IMG/VR virus record: IMGVR_UViG_3300044451_000218
DNA length: 20,000 nt
DNA from: an uncultured virus (IMG/VR IMGVR_UViG_3300044451_000218)
Lineage: Duplodnaviria; Heunggongvirae; Uroviricota; Caudoviricetes
Direction: 5' to 3' (one strand)
Shown: positions 2,999 through 20,000 of the stretch, one piece after another
How positions within the stretch are numbered: the first letter of the stretch is position 1
Layout: every line of letters starts with the position of its first letter
Position numbers and translations under genes: made by a program
The notes under the pieces: model-generated
Told to the model about the DNA's origin: nothing
The model's database searches: none
The model's input: the letters and a program-made list of their open reading frames with translations, nothing else

Positions 2999-4114
2999 AT
3001 GAACATCCTCCGCAAACTCGTACTACGCATTCACGAAACTCCGACCCGTGCCGTCCTCGCCATCACCGGGGGCGGCACGGAAGCAATCGGGGAGCTTCTG
3101 CGTTATGGACAAGGCTCCAGCACCATTCTGGAAGCCGTCGTCCCATACGACCAACAAGCGTTCCGCGACTTCGTCAAAGGCACGCCCGACAAGTATTGCT
3201 CGTCGGAAGCCGCCAACGATCTCGCGGCATCGGCTTATCTTCGCGCCCGCCAATTAACGAGCGAAGGGCCGGTCGTCGGCGTGGGCGTCACCTGTTCGCT
3301 CACGAAGGACGGAGAGCGAGCGGGCCGCAAGCACAACGCATACATCGCCGTACAGGGTGACGACTCGACATACGAGTGCGAGGTTCTGCTGAAAGATGCC
3401 GTTCGCACCCGCGCCGAACAAGAGGCTCGTGTGGCCGAGGCCATCATCGGCTGTCTGGCGATGATGTGCGGAATCCCGGCGTCCGAAAATTGCATGTCAC
3501 ACAACCTCATCTGCAACGGCACCCACTACGGCGTCGGGCAAGAACTGATGGATGTGTGCAGGGGGCAACTGGACGTTACGCCGCAGTGCAGCCGCGAAAA
3601 TCGCGTCATCTTCTCCGGGGCGTTCAATCCGCTCCACGCGCAACACGAAAAGATCGCGGCGAAGGTGGCCGAACTCACCGGGCAACGTGTCGATCTGGAA
3701 GTCTGCATCAAGAACGTGGACAAGCCCGCGCTCAGTCACGCGGTCATTCATCAACGGCGTGACCATTTGAGTGTGGCTATGTACCAGAAGGATTGGGCCG
3801 GTTCACTGTTCTGGACCAGCACACCCACCTTCAAGCAGAAGGCTCTGGCCTTCCCGAAGTCCACCTTCGTCATCGGGTGGGACACCTTCACGCGGCTCAA
3901 CGATCCCAAGTACGGCGATCTTGACGAAGCCGTGGCCGTGTTCAGGAAGATGGGTACAAAATTCCTTGTCTTCCATCGTATCATCAACGGCGTATCCAGT
4001 GCGGACGCCCCGGCGACCGAATGGCGAATGGCCGAGTTCGCCAAGATCATCTCGGCCGAGGAACTTCCTCCGGTCGATATTTCCAGCACTCAGATCCGTA
4101 ACGCGGGAACCTGA
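2999..4114 (+). CDS. CinA/PncC-like domain fused to a NadD/NMNAT-type nucleotidyltransferase
   Basis: N-terminal ITGGG...GSSTILEAVVPY CinA-like region; FSGAFNPLHAQH (HxGH-like), IGWDTFTRL and C-terminal ISSTQIR motifs. Confidence 0.8.
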   Translation: MNILRKLVLRIHETPTRAVLAITGGGTEAIGELLRYGQGSSTILEAVVPYDQQAFRDFVKGTPDKYCSSEAANDLAASAYLRARQLTSEGPVVGVGVTCSLTKDGERAGRKHNAYIAVQGDDSTYECEVLLKDAVRTRAEQEARVAEAIIGCLAMMCGIPASENCMSHNLICNGTHYGVGQELMDVCRGQLDVTPQCSRENRVIFSGAFNPLHAQHEKIAAKVAELTGQRVDLEVCIKNVDKPALSHAVIHQRRDHLSVAMYQKDWAGSLFWTSTPTFKQKALAFPKSTFVIGWDTFTRLNDPKYGDLDEAVAVFRKMGTKFLVFHRIINGVSSADAPATEWRMAEFAKIISAEELPPVDISSTQIRNAGT

Positions 4115-6813: not shown

Positions 6814-7329
6814 CTACCGTGGCGGCGGGGCCGGCATCGGGTAAGGTACGGCTGGTGGCGGAATCATCACGTCGTCGCATTGGCACTTCTTCTTGCGGTG
6901 GACGCAACCCACACACAGAACCACCGCCAGCAGCAGAATCACATTCTTCATGACGAACTCCTTTAGTTGGGCCGGATCAGTCTACACCGCCACAACCAGT
7001 ACCGGAGGCCGAACAATGAATCAAGACCAACAACCGCCAGCTACAGACCCGCACGCCCCGAAACACCTGAAACCGCTCCGCATCTTACGCAGAACCCCGA
7101 ACAGATCACCGAGGAACTCAAAGCGAGAGCCTCGAAGGTCAAGAAGAAGATCGCACGACTCGAAAAGCTGAAACGGGTCAGCCACGAAGTCATGCGGATG
7201 CGGTGTTGCGCGGCTCCCTAGTTAAGAACAAACTAGCAGAGCGTCATGCCAAAAAAGTGATTTCCCCAATGGGAGATGCCATTTTGGTCTATACTGACAT
7301 CCTCGTGATTAAGGGCGAGGGCGACAGCA

Positions 7330-8805
7330 GTGAAGAACTTCAACGTGGCAACAGATTCCTTGTTCTTTGTCGCCGAGGGCGATCAAGAAAAGCTCGTTTC
7401 TGCTCTCGACATCGAGAAGAACGGCAAGAAGTATTCACAGTTTCTTGGCTCGCCAATGCAACAGGCGACCTACATGAACGCCATCGTCGCCATCCTCAGC
7501 GATTTGAAGGCCAATGGGAACACGTCCCAATACGACATGTCCACCTTCATGCAGCAGCCCGACTTGTCAACCAAGTACAACATCTACTTCCCGTGGAAAA
7601 CGCTCGCGAAAAACGATGTGCATCGCGAGATCGGCTATTGCAGTTCACGGATTCCTGTAGGCCAAAACGAAGCGTATCGTTTTAACCCGCACCCACAAGC
7701 TTTTGAGTACGAGCTTTGCCAACGATGCTGCGCATATGGTTTTTTGGAAAACATCCTGTTTGCCCGTAGTGGTGGGCAAGGATGGAGTCCTGCTTTGGCC
7801 GGTGAAAACCCCCTGTATGTCTGGAAGACCGGGGAGAACCTCGCCGACTTCATTCAACTGAACAGCGGCCAGCCTGAAAAGGCCGGGTGGGACGTTCTGA
7901 AAACCCTCGGTACTCCAGAATCTCCCAACTTGCTAACGCGCAATCAAACATACACATACAACCCAAGACTGATGGAATGTGTGTGGAAGGCACCGCTACA
8001 ACCTTGCTTTTTGTGCGGCGACTGTGAAATGCCTCATGGCAGTGAAATGTATTCTCGTGGGATCAATACGAAGTTTACCAAAGAGTCACTTTTGAAAGGC
8101 TTTCAGAAGAAATGGCACGGGTTCAAACCGACCGAGAAGGAACATTTCTTAATTGTCCCGTGCGAAGATGATAGGAAACTTGTGCGTAAAGACGGCAAAC
8201 GCATGATCGCTACGGCAGACAACAAAACTATTGCCGAAGCCGCCTACGCTCAATTTGGTGACAAATGGATCGCAATCGGAATGATGGTTGAAAGTGTTAA
8301 GAAGTCCTCGATTTTCGAGCAGTATCTCGTGACCCCTGACACTTGCCCGCAGCGAAGGAAACAGCCCCCGCACAAAAACTTCAAGAAGAGGCTTGACGGC
8401 TCAAGGCCCAAAGTCGTTGTTCCAAAACCGATCATCTCTACAGCGGAGGTAAGCCGCGAGATGATCGCAAAGGCCGTCGCATGCCTGAGCGAGATCCCCC
8501 AAGAAAAGCTCGCAATGTTACGCAACGCCTGTTACGGCGCGAGGCATGAAAGCGATGCCGAGGTGTTGGATTTTCTGGACGGTCTTTGGCGGAAGGTTTA
8601 CCAGAAGACCCGACTGACTTTCAAGAGGGTCTTTTTTCAACTGGTTCTCGCCTACGCCTGCAACCCGCGCAGTCGCAAGAGCGGTTACCTTGCTAAACAT
8701 TTGGCTCGCAACGTTCAGCTATTGGCACAATCGCCCTGTTCTGCCGTTGTGTTCGGCGAAGTCGATTGGTACTGTGTTTTCTCAACCATGTGTGGAGTGA
8801 AGTAA
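7330..8805 (+). CDS. cas8e: Cas8e (Cse1/CasA)-like large subunit with a C-terminal Cas11 (Cse2)-like region
   Basis: N-terminal FNV.....F.V...VS..D, LCQRCCA....FARSGGQG....GENL..FIQLN and CFLCG motifs as in Cse1; first gene of the cas operon. Confidence 0.8.
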   Translation: MKNFNVATDSLFFVAEGDQEKLVSALDIEKNGKKYSQFLGSPMQQATYMNAIVAILSDLKANGNTSQYDMSTFMQQPDLSTKYNIYFPWKTLAKNDVHREIGYCSSRIPVGQNEAYRFNPHPQAFEYELCQRCCAYGFLENILFARSGGQGWSPALAGENPLYVWKTGENLADFIQLNSGQPEKAGWDVLKTLGTPESPNLLTRNQTYTYNPRLMECVWKAPLQPCFLCGDCEMPHGSEMYSRGINTKFTKESLLKGFQKKWHGFKPTEKEHFLIVPCEDDRKLVRKDGKRMIATADNKTIAEAAYAQFGDKWIAIGMMVESVKKSSIFEQYLVTPDTCPQRRKQPPHKNFKKRLDGSRPKVVVPKPIISTAEVSREMIAKAVACLSEIPQEKLAMLRNACYGARHESDAEVLDFLDGLWRKVYQKTRLTFKRVFFQLVLAYACNPRSRKSGYLAKHLARNVQLLAQSPCSAVVFGEVDWYCVFSTMCGVK

Positions 8806-8806
8806 A

Positions 8807-10318
8807 ATGGCTACGCTCAGAAATGTGTTCCTCGGCATGTCGCAAATTACGCACTACGGTGCGGGACTTCCGAATCGCGACAAGAGCGGTGTGTACAAAC
8901 ATATCCCCGTGGGCAACGTGGATCGCGGGATGGTGTCGCCACAGTGCCGCCGTCAGCACGTTCGTGAAGAGATCGTCAAGCGTATGCCGCACCTCGAACT
9001 TTCCGACCAGACGCGGCACTACCCAGACATCCTCATCCCGATGTTGACAGACACGTCCGATAAATTCGGCGGCGTCGCGTTGACCGAATCGGAAGCAAAT
9101 GTGGTCATGCAGTATTTCCGCACCCTGCTACAGAAGAAGACCCGCGAAACGAAAAACGGTCGTTCAAACGCCACCTACAAACATTGGCCGGACTCCATGC
9201 GACTGGTGGCTGCGGCATGTCGAAAAATCAAAGAGAATGGCGGGCAACAATGGTCCGACATTTCCACCCCGTCATCCACCATCGTCATCGAGAACATTCT
9301 CGCCGATCTGGGGCTTGAGAAACAGGACAAAAACGATGACGATGATGATGACAAGAAAGATCCCGAACTGGAAGCCACTCGCAACCGAATCCTCAAAGAA
9401 CTCCCCGGCCGCATGGAGGCCGCGAAGATCGGTTACGATCAAGGTAACGAATTGAAGGCACTCGTTATCGCCATCCGCGATAACGTGCCGCAAGAGCAGC
9501 CGGAACAAGCGGAGAAAATCGAGAAGCCCAACCAGAAGCCTCAAGCCGGTGGCAAGAGGGGTGCCAAGAAGACCGTCGAAACCAGCGGACTGGATGAAAT
9601 TCGCGATAATTTCAAGAAAGCCTTGCTCGCAGAGACGAGCAAAATCAAGGGCAAGAAAATGCTTCGGCTTTCTGACTGGTGTGTGCCGCCATTCGACGTA
9701 GCCCTGTTCGGCAACATGCCCAACGAGAACCTCCACCGGCAGGTTACGCCCGCCATGAACAACACGGCGGCTATCTCAGTCAACCCGTTGGCCCCGGTCA
9801 CCGTTTTCAATACCATCGTTGATACCAAACGGCCGGAATCGAACATGGTGCCGGATCAGAGCTACATGTACGACGCCGTTATGTACTCGTTCGACATGCT
9901 TGACTCCAACCAGTTGTTCCAGAACATGGAGCGAGAGGCCACGGTCGCAGAAGTCGAAGCACTGATCGCGTCGTTCATCGAGTCACTGCCCGGTGCCAAA
10001 CGCGGCACCTCGGCGATCAATTCGCCGCCGATTCTCGTATCAATCGTGCTGTCGGAGTACAACCAACTGTGTTGCGAACGCGCCTTCGTAGAGGCAATCA
10101 ATACGCAAACGGATGATGTTTCACGCATCGCCACCGAACGGCTGTACGGTTTCATGCAGAAGAACCAAGAACAGTGGGAACCTCTCGATACGTTCGTCTA
10201 CTCGGTCGATCCCGTACCAGAGAAACTCAAAGCCCGAACCTACCGCAACACGCGGAAGTTCGCGCGAGCCGTCGCCGAACGCTACGTTGAACTGCGTTGT
10301 AGCGTGACCAAGAAGTAA
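8807..10318 (+). CDS. cas7: Cas7e (Cse4/CasC) backbone subunit, enlarged
   Basis: PNRDKSG..K....G...R..VSPQC.R, DVALFGNM, AISVN, SLPGAK motifs matching Cse4. Confidence 0.88.
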   Translation: MATLRNVFLGMSQITHYGAGLPNRDKSGVYKHIPVGNVDRGMVSPQCRRQHVREEIVKRMPHLELSDQTRHYPDILIPMLTDTSDKFGGVALTESEANVVMQYFRTLLQKKTRETKNGRSNATYKHWPDSMRLVAAACRKIKENGGQQWSDISTPSSTIVIENILADLGLEKQDKNDDDDDDKKDPELEATRNRILKELPGRMEAAKIGYDQGNELKALVIAIRDNVPQEQPEQAEKIEKPNQKPQAGGKRGAKKTVETSGLDEIRDNFKKALLAETSKIKGKKMLRLSDWCVPPFDVALFGNMPNENLHRQVTPAMNNTAAISVNPLAPVTVFNTIVDTKRPESNMVPDQSYMYDAVMYSFDMLDSNQLFQNMEREATVAEVEALIASFIESLPGAKRGTSAINSPPILVSIVLSEYNQLCCERAFVEAINTQTDDVSRIATERLYGFMQKNQEQWEPLDTFVYSVDPVPEKLKARTYRNTRKFARAVAERYVELRCSVTKK

Positions 10319-10371
10319 AACGAAGACCACATTTCCCGATTTATCGGGAGTCACCAATAAAGGTCCAAGAC

Positions 10372-11430
10372 ATGAGCGTCATCAAACTGTTTTTGGCCGG
10401 CTCACGACAGTGTTACGGACTCGAAAATATCGGCCAAACCAAGCCGTGGCCGACCAAAAGCGCCGTCGCTGGCATCGTGGCAAATGCGCTCGGCCTCGAC
10501 TACAAAGACACGACCGAATTCCTCAAAGATTTCAATAAGACCAAAGTACACGTTCGCGTGGACTCTCCCGGTTCTATCTGCGAAGACTTCCAAGTCGCCA
10601 CCGGGTTTGGTGATGCAAACGGCCGCGCCCGCACAATGAAGGAAAAGGTTGCTTACGTCGATAACGGGGTCGTTAAAGAATATAACGCCCCGAAAAAAAC
10701 CATGTTTACACCCACATACCTCTGCGATGCGAGGTTCATGGTTTTTATCGAAGGCCGACGCGAGGTTCTCGAAACTTGGGTCGCCGATCTCGAACGGCCC
10801 AAACGTCCCCTTTATCTCGGACGGTCGTCATGCCTCCCAAGTGAAAACATCTTCGTGTCCCACGAGGACCGAGACATTCAGGAACTGATCGAGAACAGTG
10901 TACTCGAACTACTGCCGGGAACCAAATACGAGGGTCAAAAAACACTCAATACGATCATGGAAGTCCAGAGTGGCGGGTACTTCATCCGAGATGTCGTTCT
11001 TACGTTCAAACCGAGCCACACACACGGTTCACGAATGGTTGTTCAAAAGCCAGTGGTCGTGAAAAATGTTGTCCCGTGGCTGCAAGGCGTGGGCCTTTCC
11101 GGGCGAAGAAATCGTCCGAGTAAAAAGGCACGCGATGAACGCCTTTCATATGACAACAATCGTTGCGTCGAGTGCGGGGCAGTCAAGGACGTGCAATATC
11201 ACCACGTCACATACGAGAACTATGGGTGTGAAAAGCTCGAAGACGCCCGAACCCTCTGCGTCATTTGTCACCGCGCCTGCACGCTTCTCAACAGTCAATT
11301 CGGTCACTTTGATCCGAGGGAACTGCCAGAAGAAGATTACGAGGTCTACCGGAACGTGCGTGACCAGATCGCGGTAGAACATATGAGGATTTTGGAATCA
11401 AGAAAGCAACTGCCGAAGTTGCCCTACTGA
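10372..11430 (+). CDS. cas5: Cas5e fused to a C-terminal HNH nuclease
   Basis: PTKSAVAGIVANALG, YLCDARF, LYLGRSSCLPS (Cas5e); C-terminal CVECG...YHHVTY...TLCVICH (HNH). Confidence 0.92.
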   Translation: MSVIKLFLAGSRQCYGLENIGQTKPWPTKSAVAGIVANALGLDYKDTTEFLKDFNKTKVHVRVDSPGSICEDFQVATGFGDANGRARTMKEKVAYVDNGVVKEYNAPKKTMFTPTYLCDARFMVFIEGRREVLETWVADLERPKRPLYLGRSSCLPSENIFVSHEDRDIQELIENSVLELLPGTKYEGQKTLNTIMEVQSGGYFIRDVVLTFKPSHTHGSRMVVQKPVVVKNVVPWLQGVGLSGRRNRPSKKARDERLSYDNNRCVECGAVKDVQYHHVTYENYGCEKLEDARTLCVICHRACTLLNSQFGHFDPRELPEEDYEVYRNVRDQIAVEHMRILESRKQLPKLPY

Positions 11431-11471
11431 TTCAGCCCATTCCACTATGTCCCATTTTTTGGGAGACTCTT

Positions 11472-12086
11472 ATGTATCGATGCTTCCTGAAGGTCAAACC
11501 CAGTGCCATGATGTCCAGACTGTACGACTGGCACGGGTGGTATGGAATCATTCTCAACGGGTGGCAAGACACTAGGTTTCATCAACAGCCTCGGTCAGAA
11601 AATCGATCCATCCTGTACCGGGTCGAGAACGAACAGATTGTCGTTCAAAGTACAGAACGGCCAGATCAGCCAATCCGCGCACCAGAGATCGCCAGTTGTG
11701 TGATCGAGGAGTATAACCCGAAACCATTCGGGAAGACCAACATCGAAGTGGTCATGGCCGTTTACACGCGGGGCAAGCGGACCAAAGGCGTTGCGCCGCC
11801 CGGAGTCAGAAAGAACCCCACTGCCGGACTATACCTGCCACTCGAAAAGCGACAGTTCTTCCTCCGCAAAATGCAAGACAACGGGTTCGTCGGCGACATC
11901 ATTTCGCTATCGGTCGGCCAGACGTTTTCGTTCTCTTCACCTCACGGTCAAAGTAGAATTGAACTGCCGGTGGCAAACTTCAAAGCCACAGTGGACATCA
12001 AGGACACTAACGCCTTCCTCGACATGATGAAACGAGGCGTCAGCCGCAACAAAGATTCTGGCTGTGGACTTATCGTTCTGCGATAA
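11472..12086 (+). CDS. cas6: Cas6e crRNA-processing endoribonuclease
   Basis: ILYRVE...IVVQS..RP and C-terminal Gly-rich loop GVSRNKDSGCGL; directly upstream of the array. Confidence 0.85.
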   Translation: MYRCFLKVKPSAMMSRLYDWHGWYGIILNGWQDTRFHQQPRSENRSILYRVENEQIVVQSTERPDQPIRAPEIASCVIEEYNPKPFGKTNIEVVMAVYTRGKRTKGVAPPGVRKNPTAGLYLPLEKRQFFLRKMQDNGFVGDIISLSVGQTFSFSSPHGQSRIELPVANFKATVDIKDTNAFLDMMKRGVSRNKDSGCGLIVLR

Positions 12087-12230
12087 TACGCGAGAGCAGA
12101 GGTGTTGAACACTTCCTCTGAATTCGATCTTTGAAAACTTAGACAATTACGCCACGCGAGCTACGCACAAGGCAACCCCTCGCGTGGCGTAATTGTAGTA
12201 CCGATAATAGTTCGATTTGTGGCCATGAGC
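12087..12230 (+). promoter_or_regulatory. CRISPR leader with an 18-bp perfect inverted repeat (12143-12196)
   Basis: Non-coding stretch between cas6 and the conserved end of the array; ACAATTACGCCACGCGAG / CTCGCGTGGCGTAATTGT. Confidence 0.65.
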
Positions 12231-13125
12231 CTCAAACCCTCAATCCCATTCATTGGGAGTTGTCATCTTACCAAGCTCGATGTTCAAGTGACGCCCGCAG
12301 ACCTCAAACCCTCAATCCCATTCATTGGGAGTTGTCATAATTGCTCTTTGAGACGCAGCAACTTCGAGACTTCCGACTCAAACCCTCAATCCCATTCATT
12401 GGGAGTTGTCATGGCGAGCGGCTGCTTCGGGTGATCCAGAAGAAAGAACTCAAACCCTCAATCCCATTCATTGGGAGTTGTCATCCGATCTTCATGGGCA
12501 ACCTTCAGGAAGGCACAACCCCGCCTCAAACCCTCAATCCCATTCATTGGGAGTTGTCATCGCTCGGTGCTGGTCTGCGAGTCGGACGGTGAATGCTCAA
12601 ACCCTCAATCCCATTCATTGGGAGTTGTCATACGAAGGACGGCAAAGGGAAACTTGGCATGGTCCGGCTCAAACCCTCAATCCCATTCATTGGGAGTTGT
12701 CATCTCTGGGTTCTGGTCCGGCGGCAGCAGCTTCTTCATCAAACCCTCAATCCCATTCATTGGGAGTTGTCATCCGTACCCGACCGCTTTGGAAACAAGA
12801 ATGCCCGCCTTAATCCCTCAATCCCATTCATTGGGAGTCGTCATAGCAGCTCAGTGTCGATGGTCGCGAGTTGCGAGTCCGCTCAAGTCCCAATCCCATC
12901 TTTTGGGAGTTGTCATCTGGGAGCCGCAAGCCGATGGGTAGAAGACCAGCAATTTTTGTAACTAATCCCATTTCGTTCGGAGTCGTCATAAGACCGACAG
13001 ATGGGCAGCATGACTGGCTGCAAATTCAATCCCATTTTTTTGTTGGGAGTTGTCATGACGGGTTCGATGGCCTGGATTGCGCTGATGGCACACTTCTCAA
13101 ACTCGTCCCATTCATTGGGAGCTAC
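12231..13125 (+). CRISPR. CRISPR array 1: 13 repeats CTCAAACCCTCAATCCCATTCATTGGGAGTTGTCAT (36 nt), 12 spacers
   Basis: Identical repeats at 12231, 12303, 12377, 12449, 12525, 12596, 12668; progressively degenerate at 12738, 12809, 12882, ~12954, ~13018, 13096; first nine spacers 34-40 nt; TCCCA/TGGGA stem followed by exactly 8 nt. Confidence 0.97.
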
Positions 13126-13754
13126 CTGACTAACTCAATCACCTTCGGCGGCACCTTTTCCGAAACGTAATAGGACGGCCACCTGCTGTCCTCCGAACCA
13201 CGCCCGTCATTCTGCAACTTGTCTTCCAACACCGACCGCTTCACCTTCAACACCACCACCGGCGACGGCCGATCCGAATTGTGTTCCTCATGTTCCTCCA
13301 CCCTCTGCTTCCAGAACTTCACCCCGCCCTTCTCGGCAAAAAACACCTTGCCCGAACTGTAGTCCGAGTAGTTCGTAAACTGCTTGACTGCCGTAGGAGA
13401 CAACCCGTTCTTGCGAATCAGCGGCAACCGCGATTTCGTCGTAACGTGGTAAAGGTAATCGTCCTTACCTTCCTTCTGAATGGCCTCGCGGTCCAACCTA
13501 GCGGCCAATTTCTCGTGATCGACGTTCCTGTAACGCTTCGCCAGTTCGCGGTAAACGAACGCGGCGTAACCCTCGGACACGCCGAGCTTTTTGCCAATCT
13601 CCGCAATCGACAAACGACCCGTCGCAGCCAGTTGCTGCATCGCCCACGGCTTGATGGAAGGCTCAATCGAGGTGTACCACGCTTCCCACGCCTCCCACGG
13701 GTCGCCGGCAGAAGGCGGAACACTCATTTCTAGCCACAGTTTGAAAGTCGTCAT
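13122..13754 (-). CDS. HTH plus ADP-ribosyltransferase-fold (KptA/Tpt1-like) protein
   Basis: Start MTTFKLWLE; LSIAEIGKKLGVS HTH; LYHVT....L..I...GL.P, VFFA, VVLKV, VPPKVI ART-like motifs. Confidence 0.65.
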   Translation of the reverse strand: MTTFKLWLEMSVPPSAGDPWEAWEAWYTSIEPSIKPWAMQQLAATGRLSIAEIGKKLGVSEGYAAFVYRELAKRYRNVDHEKLAARLDREAIQKEGKDDYLYHVTTKSRLPLIRKNGLSPTAVKQFTNYSDYSSGKVFFAEKGGVKFWKQRVEEHEEHNSDRPSPVVVLKVKRSVLEDKLQNDGRGSEDSRWPSYYVSEKVPPKVIELVR

Positions 13755-14850: not shown

Positions 14851-14937
14851 TACCTCCCCGACCTCAAAACCTGCCTGCAACGCGCCGGGATCACCGAAAC
14901 CAACGTCAAACTGAAGGGTTTCCATGAAGACGGCAGC

Positions 14938-15921
14938 AGACCAATGGCTTAGGCAGGTGCAGGCAAGGTTGTATGCGATTCGCTTACGGTCTGCAAGCTA
15001 TCGGTCAAGACCAATGGCTTAGGCAGCAGTCAGCCTTGAGGACTACGAAAGAACGCATGTCTGCAAGCTATCGGTCAAGACCAATGGCTTAGGCAGATTC
15101 CGCTCATCTGGTTCCACTTGGGGTATATCGAATCTGCGAGCTATCGGTTACGACCGATAGCTCAGGCAGGAGGGTTGGCGACGGCAGGCATCGGCGCTCT
15201 GCGTGCTATTGGTTACGACCAATCGCTCAGGCAGCCGTCCGTGTCTGGGATTGCGACGACGTGCAGCATCTGCGAGCTATTGCTTACGACCAATGGCTCA
15301 GGCAGTAGCTGATGCCGAGTTCATCGGCAACCTGCGAGTTATCGGCTAAGGCCAATGACTCAGGCAGGACGACTACCTCGATCTGACGCCACTTCTGCGA
15401 GTTATCGGCTAAGGCCAATCGCTCAGGCAGAACCGCTGCCTCGTGTTGCCAATGATGACCGCGACCCTGCGTGCTATTGGTTACGACCAATCGCTCAGGC
15501 AGCCCCAGTCGAACAGGACGTTGGCGACGGCGTTCATCTGCGTGCTATTGGTTACGACCAATGGTTCAAGCAGATTCGGCAGCATTACGGATCTTTTCGA
15601 TGAACCTGCGAGCTATCGGTCAAGACCAATGGCTCAGGCAGAACTATAAGCCCGTGTCGCCTGTCTGCGAACCATCTGCCACGGCTCATGGTTCAAGCAG
15701 GTTCAAGCAGGACATCCTGCTGTTCGACTCTCTGACCGCAAACGACTGCGAGCTATCGGCTAAGGCCAATCGCTCAGGCAGTGTTGGATGTATGCGAAGT
15801 CGCCGTTGCTCGCCTGCGGGCCATCGGTTGCGACCAATGGCTCAAGCAGATCTTGAAGTTCGCGTCATTGCATTTGTTCTGATACCTGCGAGCCATCGGT
15901 TACGGCCAATGGCTCAAGCAG
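14938..15921. CRISPR. orphan CRISPR-like array 2: 14 full plus 1 partial 36-nt hairpin repeats (consensus CTGCGAGCTATCGGTTACGACCAATGGCTCAGGCAG), 14 unique spacers
   Basis: Full repeats at 14991, 15061, 15134, 15199, 15270, 15332, 15395, 15467, 15538, 15606, 15665, 15746, 15814, 15886; 3' half-repeat at 14938-14956; spacers 23-37 nt. Confidence 0.85.
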
Positions 15922-16188
15922 AAGCACTACGTCGCACTCGCCACAGGCTCGCAACCTAAACACCCCGAACACCCGTAAAACGACAACGGCCAACCCGTCA
16001 CCAGATCGTCACCACGACGCTCAAAAACCAACCCGGCATCTTCAACAGCTACCAAGAGGCCATCACAACACTCGCGCAATACGCACAACACGCTCCCCGA
16101 TTCAAACTCGGCGACCAAACCGACTACGAACTCCACCTCAAAACGTTCACCGATAACTACAACTACGACAACTGAAAGGCACACAACC

Positions 16189-18069: not shown

Positions 18070-18182
18070 ACACGCGACAATAGCTCACAGGCTATATCCC
18101 CGCGCTACTATAGCCCCACGCGACAATAGCCCCAGAGCTATAGCTTCACGAGGCTATATCCTCACCGGAGCTATAGCCCCAT
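18070..18182. repeat. cluster of short imperfect repeats (CACGCGACAATAGC x2, GGCTATATCC x2, CTATAGC x3)
   Basis: Read directly from the sequence. Confidence 0.6.
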
Positions 18183-19864: not shown

Positions 19865-19905
19865 AACAAGAACCCCGGAGAGAACCCCTCTCCGGGGTTC
19901 TTGTT
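19865..19905 (+). terminator. intrinsic terminator-like hairpin
   Basis: 18-bp perfect stem AACAAGAACCCCGGAGAG / CTCTCCGGGGTTCTTGTT, 5-nt loop. Confidence 0.7.
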
Positions 19906-20000
19906 TGCGCGGCGGGCCGGTTCATAGCGTTGTACCTGCTGGGGTTCCCCCTCTCCGGGGTTCTTGTTTGCGCGGCGGGCCGGTTCATAGCGTTGTACCT
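19885..20000. repeat. 63-bp-period tandem duplication running off the window end
   Basis: CCCCTCTCCGGGGTTCTTGTTTGCGCGGCGGGCCGGTTCATAGCGTTGTACCT at 19885 and 19948. Confidence 0.85.

Follow-up and report, generated by a model that had tools for sequence, protein, structure and literature searches.

In the CRISPR-Cas operon of an uncultured virus (IMG/VR record IMGVR_UViG_3300044451_000218; Caudoviricetes), the cas6 gene is preceded by a small hairpin, H3, that copies the hairpin core of the repeat of the operon's own CRISPR array and overlaps the likely ribosome-binding site of cas6. A second repeat-like hairpin, H2, lies between cas7 and cas5 of the same operon. The analysis covers a stretch of 20,000 nucleotides from this record, referred to here as the window, and all positions are counted from its first base. 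We propose that H2 and H3 are secondary sites for the operon's own Cas6, with Cas6-dependent negative feedback at cas6, and judge this account, drawn from sequence, to have about an even chance of being correct. The broader statement that Cas6 recognizes H2 and H3 in some way, which takes the feedback reading together with the message-processing reading discussed below, is probable.

A repeat-like hairpin at the cas6 ribosome-binding site

H3 is found on the plus strand at 11450..11465, where the window reads tcccattttttgggag, followed by actctt and the cas6 ATG at 11472. Its arms, TCCCA (11450-11454) and TGGGA (11460-11464), enclose a TTTTT loop and are followed by an unpaired G at 11465, so that the RNA reads UCCCA-UUUUU-UGGGA and then G. 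The feature was defined from the window sequence, an exact motif match, a covariance model, and folding, in which the hairpin is present in both the minimum free energy (MFE) and the centroid structures. Since the upstream gene ends at 11430, H3 lies in the 41-nt intergenic gap between cas5 and cas6. The GGGAG at 11461..11465 (plus strand) stands 6 nt (ACTCTT) ahead of the ATG and, on sequence and spacing, likely acts as the Shine-Dalgarno sequence of cas6. Four of its five bases (GGGA) make up part of the 3' arm of H3, and the Shine-Dalgarno is accordingly paired in both predicted folds.

The hairpin resembles the repeat of CRISPR array 1, which begins shortly after cas6 (12231..13128, plus strand; identified by repeat detection, alignment, and covariance model) and contains 13 repeats of approximately 36 nt, the last four of which are degenerate. 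The array-1 repeat, CTCAAACCCTCAATCCCATTCATTGGGAGTTGTCAT, forms a 5-bp stem with a 5-nt loop and is followed by a G. Its hairpin core and trailing G are invariant in 13 of 13 repeats, including the degenerate four (columns T14-T19, T23, T24, and G26-G29); these invariant columns cover both arms of the stem, the two outermost loop bases, and the trailing G, while the repeats differ from one another in the 13-nt 5' segment and in the 3' tail. H3 is identical to the repeat at every invariant core column and keeps 14 of the 16 core positions. Its two differences are in the loop, at positions where the degenerate repeats differ as well, leaving three of five loop bases identical. The predicted stabilities of the two hairpins are also similar, at -7.4 kcal/mol for H3 and -7.6 kcal/mol for the array-1 repeat, each in a 36-nt context. 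An earlier note on this DNA had reported the TCCCA-TTTTT-TGGGA-G string at 11450-11465, the stem, 5-nt loop length, and trailing G that it has in common with the array-1 repeat, and the position of its 3' arm within a GGGAG 6 nt before the cas6 ATG; each of these observations agrees with the window sequence, with a 5-bp stem in both hairpins and the ATG at 11472.

Statistical support and a second site

Several measures indicate how unusual this likeness is. Of the 12 places in the window that match TCCCANNNNNTGGGAG, 11 belong to array 1 and the other is the site at 11450; the number expected is 0.01, and no more than one was seen in any of 200 shuffles. When GGGAG is held fixed, nine of the 11 other core positions of H3 still agree with the repeat, for which P = 6.9e-4 if bases are drawn at the composition of the gap and 1.3e-4 if they are drawn uniformly. 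A covariance model with the 5-bp stem was built from the 13 array-1 repeats alone and used to score every window position on both strands (40,000 strand positions). H3 is the top match outside the array, with 16.5 bits and an E-value of 0.015, and aligns to model positions 14-29 of 36. The second-best is H2, with 12.2 bits (E 0.24; the match spans 10334-10356), followed by a 10.4-bit match at 13727 (E 0.8). In control DNA, comprising eight unrelated cas loci (98,608 bases, both strands), the best score given by the same model was 9.5 bits, and none reached 12.2. On these figures, chance is a poor explanation of H3. A looser pattern, TCCC-N(3-12)-GGGAG, has 15 matches in the whole window against 1.66 expected, all on the plus strand; 12 belong to the array, and the other three fall in non-coding stretches of the operon.

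H2 (10334..10350, plus strand; found by mismatch search, covariance model, and fold) has the sequence UCCCGAUUUAUCGGGAGU, which pairs as UCCCGA-UUUA-UCGGGA and is followed by G. It occupies part of the 53 nt that separate cas7 from cas5. Its four lower pairs and the trailing G-U are the same as in the repeat, and its top pair is changed from A-U to G-C, a compensatory change. The fold is stable for its composition (-9.0 kcal/mol, z = -3.27), with one of 200 shuffles equally stable. The GGGAG that H2 also contains is 21 nt away from the cas5 ATG, no start codon is present 5-12 nt downstream of it, and cas5 has a Shine-Dalgarno-like AAGG of its own at 10360-10363, 8 nt before its ATG. Given this spacing, the lack of a usable start, and the separate AAGG, H2 cannot be a hairpin that occludes a Shine-Dalgarno. 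As its presence is thus not explained by such a role, H2 points to a shared RNA-binding factor, for which Cas6 would be the obvious candidate. H2 and H3 are both on the sense strand and lie inside the 94 nt that make up the only two real intergenic gaps of the operon; the cas8-cas7 junction is a 1-nt gap and has no mimic site.

Neither hairpin shows significant likeness to the 13-nt 5' segment of the repeat, and there is little to its 7-nt 3' tail; H2 aligns to model positions 14-35 but has few identities past position 30. Likeness confined to the hairpin is the pattern expected of selection on a protein-binding core rather than of even decay of a whole repeat.

A third candidate, H1 (7260..7277, plus strand), was recognized as AUUUCCC-CAAU-GGGAGAU through a TCCC-N-GGGAG match at 7263-7275, 53 nt upstream of the cas8 GTG. 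It was dropped as a mimic: it scores only 4.6 bits and sits in a larger, terminator-like palindrome with an A-run and a T-run. This long palindrome extends over 7248-7288, with UCCC-CAAU-GGGA-G at its center, the A-run before and the T-run after it, and resembles a terminator on the minus strand. Five of the seven bases of the ATGCCAT that follows the GGGAG of H1 match the repeat tail. Directly after the palindrome, at 7286-7298, is a 13-nt sequence, GGTCTATACTGAC, that is identical to 2211-2223 at the 3' end of the HNH-endonuclease ORF (open reading frame) described below; roughly 0.03 such matches are expected, and we judged this identity compatible with chance.

Identity of Cas6 and the type of the system

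The gene that follows H3, cas6 (11472..12086, plus strand), encodes a 204-aa protein of the Cas6e/CasE family, in keeping with the cas6 label of the earlier note. This assignment is borne out by a match to PF08798 above its cut-off (E 2.1e-12, 48.1 bits, cut-off 25), with further support from PADLOC Cas6 and Cas6e models (E 3e-13 and 1e-10) and from the E. coli CasE chains in the PDB (E 3e-8). The score against the stricter NCBIfam equivalog TIGR01907, 24.6 bits, is below the cut-off of 45.2, indicating a divergent member of Cas6e. The start at 11472 is the first start codon of the ORF, and a relative, P0011, begins at the same alignment column. The catalytic histidine of CasE lies near the N-terminus. 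In the viral protein, a D-W-H-G-W motif with its His at residue 21 is kept in the relatives P0011 and P0012; the alignment to the PDB CasE chains begins only at residue 47. In the C-terminal glycine-rich loop, G189, R192, G197, G199, and L200 are invariant in six of six aligned relatives. The glycine-rich loop of Cas6 contacts the RNA backbone (PMC3902920; statements on published work here and below reflect excerpts of the sources cited).

Upstream of cas6, on the same strand, cas5-HNH (10372..11430, 352 aa) lies between H2 and H3 and matches the Cas5e family TIGR01868 over residues 6-176 with 84.8 bits (cut-off 68.95). Its residues 253-339 give a weak match to IscB-type HNH domains (E 0.004), and C265, C268, H277, H278, C296, C299, and H300 are invariant in all three sequences compared, namely the protein itself and two relatives. 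It is preceded by cas7 (8807..10318, plus strand), whose 503-aa product is a type I-E Cas7 (PF09344, E 6e-30; PADLOC Cas7e, E 8e-33), and by a likely cas8 (7330..8805, plus strand, 491 aa), which was assigned by weak PADLOC Cas8e matches (E 0.005) and otherwise by its position in the operon. No match to a Cas3 family was obtained among the 23 scanned ORFs of the 20-kb window. By these matches the locus is a Cas3-less type I-E Cas5-HNH Cascade. Such systems, which lack Cas3, were described in 2023 (Altae-Tran 2023, PMC10910872), and a structure followed in 2025 (PMC11794572). The present locus shares with them Cas8, Cas7, Cas5 fused to HNH, Cas6e, an adjacent array, and the absence of Cas3 from the window, but represents a divergent branch. 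It lacks a separate cas11, its Cas7 has 503 aa, and its repeats are 36 nt long with a 5-bp stem, compared with 29 nt and 7 bp in those systems. No mention of intercistronic hairpins between cas genes was found in the excerpts of PMC10910872 or PMC11794572.

The position of the degenerate repeats at the far end of array 1 indicates that the leader is the sequence between cas6 and the array (12087..12230, plus strand) and that the array is read on the operon strand. Read this way, the 3'-terminal 8 nt of each repeat, GTTGTCAT, would serve as the usual 8-nt 5' handle, and Cas6 would accordingly cleave the stem at its 3' base. The equivalent cut in H3 would be expected after 11464, give or take 1 nt.

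The leader carries a perfect 18-bp inverted repeat (approximately 12143-12196) that has no T-run after it and may serve for processing or protein binding or act as an atypical terminator. A consensus scan for strong intrinsic terminators on the plus strand between cas6 and the array found none. The search for promoter-like sites near the operon start and in the leader found none, with counts equal to those in shuffled sequence, the tRNA search found no tRNAs, and the Rfam scan returned nothing relevant, only a spurious palindrome match in the leader. At 12267-12302, two other lake samples (runs X7 and X9) share the repeats of array 1 but differ at the first spacer position, which shows that array content varies between samples. 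Codons 4-8 of cas6 (11483-11494) include 12 nt complementary to the middle of an array-1 spacer (12501-12512); this complementarity lies outside the seed, is at about the level of chance, and was set aside.

Proposed mechanism

Cas6e stays on its cleavage product. The Cas6 enzymes of hairpin-type repeats recognize the C-G pairs of the lower stem from the major groove and, after cleaving at its 3' base, remain bound (PMC3902920; PMC11794572). Because H2 and H3 keep the lower stem, U-CCC/GGG-A, together with the unpaired G, we propose that the operon's Cas6 binds them, probably with an affinity below that for full repeats. Free Cas6 in excess over the repeats of the CRISPR RNA (crRNA) precursor would then occupy H3 (11450-11465), where the bound protein would mask GGGAG or would cleave the stem at its 3' base, after 11464 (within 1 nt). 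The cut would leave a cas6 message with a 7-nt leader and no Shine-Dalgarno. With GGGA either masked or removed, repression is the expected sign of the effect, and the resulting drop in cas6 translation would constitute a negative feedback that senses the balance of Cas6 and crRNA. A cut at H2 (10334-10350) would split cas8-cas7 from cas5-HNH, sparing the AAGG of cas5, and would leave a Cas6-capped hairpin at the 3' end of the upstream message.

The earlier note had proposed autoregulation of cas6 by its product. The anatomy behind this proposal holds, H3 being the best match to the repeat model outside the array. Since the cas7-cas5 junction also has a site, the picture is probably wider than autoregulation of cas6 alone. 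In its widest form, the whole operon would be punctuated like a CRISPR array, with Cas6 sites at each real intergenic gap and possibly on into the array itself; we regard this extension as possible but doubtful.

A number of points weigh against the feedback reading. The first concerns folding: the 91-nt context of H3 folds no better than shuffled sequence (z = +1.07), and its 36-nt context is only mildly unusual, with 18 of 200 shuffles equally stable. Part of the likeness of H3 to the repeat is forced in any hairpin that occludes a Shine-Dalgarno, because GGGAG has the character of such a sequence. Predicted folding also pairs the likely Shine-Dalgarno of cas8, GAGGG (7317-7321), 8 nt before the GTG at 7330, within a 7-bp hairpin (7300-7321) unlike the repeat, which suggests that cis occlusion operates in this operon without Cas6. 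Binding is a further concern. In the weak-stem enzymes TtCas6A and TtCas6B, the 5' single-stranded segment of the repeat is indispensable for binding (PMC3902920). The stem here has 5 bp, and the long 5' segment of the repeat is absent from H2 and H3, so binding could be weak or absent.

The remaining points on this side concern conservation. Relatives of the system are rare: Cas5-HNH has only two, with 44% and 35% identity, among 5.8 billion clusters, Cas6 has three among 1.8 billion representatives, and Cas7 has one. These are known as proteins alone (Cas6 P0011, P0012, and P0013; Cas5-HNH P0003 and P0004; Cas7 P0018). No DNA of the clade was recovered by scanning viral contigs with Cas6, Cas5-HNH, or the repeat pattern, nor by scanning metagenome contigs with the Cas5-HNH or Cas6 alignments. 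The Cas5-HNH alignment found only 13 canonical Cas5e loci among genome contigs (26-32% identity) and no relative of the clade; tblastn against phage records likewise gave none, and against plasmids it gave 182 records, none covering at least 80% of Cas5-HNH. At the N-terminus of P0012, the residues L-G-D-F-T-V-Y could be taken as a trace of upstream DNA (TTGGGAGAY); this was not used, as it fits other Shine-Dalgarno-like strings and is silent on the 5' arm. Four DNA runs were compared with the window, of which only X7 covers H3 (X8 starts at 11515, and X9 and X11 fall short). This one other lake sample shows no differences over 11367-11937 and, being identical at H3, provides no information on variation.

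Canonical type I-E loci provide a final comparison. A sense-strand mimic of the locus's own repeat hairpin, allowing up to two mismatches, was found in none of 11 canonical loci with arrays, comprising ten of the 13 genome loci and the phage record L014; L005, L008, and L013 were left out as having no array in the stretch, and antisense two-mismatch matches, one each in L006 and L014, were disregarded. The mimic is thus not a general feature of type I-E, and the reading, as the sequence data stand, rests on one lineage. In the ten canonical loci from metagenome-assembled genomes (MAGs; L001-L012), the array starts approximately 1.3-3 kb after cas5. Several of these MAG loci have one ORF of about 300 aa in between, and a cas1-cas2 pair may not separate cas6e from the array.

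Alternative explanations

One alternative is that H3 is a plain cis-acting hairpin that hides the cas6 Shine-Dalgarno without any protein, resembling the repeat through the shared UGGGAG, and that H2 is an unrelated stable hairpin. The pairing of the cas6 Shine-Dalgarno in the MFE and centroid folds agrees with this, as does that predicted for cas8 in a hairpin unlike the repeat. A 3' arm of UGGGA dictates the 5' arm, and a lowered output would suit a protein of which Cascade requires less than of Cas7. This explanation nevertheless needs the stem register, the loop length, three of the five loop bases, and the unpaired G to coincide with the repeat. It also has to absorb the match at nine of the 11 core positions outside the Shine-Dalgarno (P = 6.9e-4) and to attribute H2 to chance, when no such score occurs in 98.6 kb of control DNA. 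We consider it unlikely.

Cascade contains many copies of Cas7 (six) and one each of Cas5 and Cas6. If H2 and H3 are mainly message-processing sites, Cas6 would cut the cas mRNA into Cas6-capped units and so set their stabilities and the subunit ratio; the polycistronic message might then be continuous with the array, and loss of the cas6 Shine-Dalgarno would be a by-product. The layout of the operon offers some support, as the two sites exactly flank cas5-HNH and H2 is clear of any ribosome-binding site. The 1-nt cas8-cas7 junction without a site and the lack of a strong plus-strand intrinsic terminator from cas6 to the array in the consensus scan are also in keeping with processing. This account is hard to tell from feedback, however, because both require Cas6 to bind, and as the main role of the two sites we hold it to be improbable.

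Stand-alone repeat-like sequences are sporadic in many type I loci (PMC10120712), and the distal repeats of array 1 illustrate how a repeat decays, so H2 and H3 might be decayed solitary repeats that recombination or rearrangement of the array once left behind between the cas genes and that now have no function. Decay should be approximately even over the 36 nt, whereas here the core is kept (14 of 16 positions in H3 and a compensatory pair in H2) and the model reaches neither 5' flank and only part of the 3' flank of H2. In addition, one relic must have fallen exactly on the cas6 Shine-Dalgarno. These considerations leave little probability for relics.

The idea that H2 and H3 belong to mini-arrays of the CreR/crlRNA type, which are common in I-E loci (PMC10120712; bioRxiv 10.1101/2023.03.10.532045) and make guide-like RNAs that park Cascade on a cas promoter, is very improbable, as there is no second repeat-like unit at array spacing (62-76 nt) beside either hairpin, the gaps of 53 and 41 nt hold no spacer-like segment, and a 10-mer search with the sequence 3' of each hairpin gave no match near a promoter.

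Other features of the window

A second array-like region at 14920-15925 consists of at least 14 units of a strongly palindromic 36-nt repeat of the CTGCGAGCTATCGGTTACGACCAATGGCTCAGGCAG type. Differences between its units are numerous and often affect both sides of the stem, and its spacers range from approximately 23 to 45 nt, which is not how a CRISPR array normally looks. Family scans of the window ORFs recognized no cas-like gene beside it. A short tandem array of 16/46-nt units is present at 18071-18181, and a perfect 53-nt direct repeat, with copies 63 nt apart, is found at the window end (19885-20000). A few of the neighboring ORFs match phage families, and most of the others have no family match. 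Among those with a match, 1471-2253 encodes a free-standing HNH endonuclease with weak IscB-type and phage HNH matches, and 2999-4114 encodes a protein with a C-terminal domain similar to nicotinate/nicotinamide-nucleotide adenylyltransferases. The recorded contigs that encode proteins of the locus reach 475,914 nt in length, and the stretch occurs in lake-water metagenome runs.

Relation to known systems

Autogenous control by target mimicry is classical, with examples in ribosomal proteins S8 and L1, the operator of threonyl-tRNA synthetase, and the coat proteins of MS2 and Q-beta, which act on the start hairpin of the replicase gene. H3 follows the same design in that it resembles the main RNA target of Cas6 and overlaps the ribosome-binding site of Cas6's own gene. 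It departs from these cases because Cas6 is an endoribonuclease, so that the operator may be cut, and because a second site, known here from its sequence, lies off any ribosome-binding site.

Known self-regulation of CRISPR-Cas uses guide-like RNAs (tracr-L, CreR/crlRNA) that direct the effector to a promoter. CreR and crlRNA mini-arrays guide Cascade to cas promoters (PMC10120712; bioRxiv 10.1101/2023.03.10.532045). What is proposed for H2 and H3 is similar to CreR, crlRNA, and CreA (also PMC8501985) in involving repeat-derived elements within cas loci, feedback on cas expression, and sensing of the crRNA load. The CreR/crlRNA type, however, is a guide RNA, usually with two degenerate repeats, that brings Cascade to a DNA promoter and acts on transcription. 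H2 and H3 are bare hairpins without a spacer, and their effect, which would need only Cas6, would fall on RNA and concern its translation or processing. Having no second repeat, spacer, or promoter match, they were not classed as mini-arrays.

Phages also encode Racr, RNA anti-CRISPRs made of solitary repeat units (PMC10651486). Racr and, as proposed, H2 and H3 are repeat mimics located outside an array on a mobile element and engaging Cas6. Racr copies the repeat of the host and poisons host complexes, whereas H2 and H3 copy the element's own repeat and stand between its own cas genes. They are also not whole-repeat mimics of the Racr kind, as H3 corresponds to repeat positions 14-29 only and H2 to 14-35 with few identities past 30. 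In Sulfolobus solfataricus, ncRNA60 is cut in vitro by Cas6-3 at a single repeat-like motif (PMC4041471) and, like the present hairpins, is a natural non-CRISPR RNA near cas6 with one repeat-like motif; it differs in being a non-coding RNA that is loaded into a type III complex rather than an operator at the cas6 ribosome-binding site.

Csy4 hairpins serve as engineered insulators within operons. Synthetic tools based on Cas6f hairpins also repress translation (PMC13478208). In both, expression is altered by a hairpin set between cistrons or close to a ribosome-binding site, as is proposed for H2 and H3; the tools are engineered, whereas H2 and H3 are natural and belong to a Cas6e system. Our search of the full-text literature, as far as the excerpts consulted show, found no natural case of a Cas6 that acts on a repeat mimic, whether on the ribosome-binding site of its own gene or in the gaps between the cas genes of its locus.

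Conclusions

If the feedback reading is correct, a Cas6 operator on cas6 would add a second and simpler layer to the self-regulation of CRISPR-Cas, one in which the enzyme recognizes, on the message that encodes it, a small version of its substrate. It would show post-transcriptional tuning of an operon whose subunits are needed in unequal amounts (six Cas7 to one Cas6) and would explain how a phage-borne system avoids a surplus of free Cas6. If the operon as a whole is punctuated, Cas6 would cut the message into units, cap the upstream pieces, and silence its own synthesis once the repeats cease to absorb it. This would make the locus a natural protein-only circuit joining the guide supply, the Cas6 level, and the ratios of Cascade subunits. 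Such an arrangement would also provide a natural design rule for Cas6-based control of expression and a natural counterpart to the Csy4 insulators. The Cas5-HNH Cascade is of interest as a compact genome editor, and understanding the role of its native non-coding parts may therefore be of practical use.

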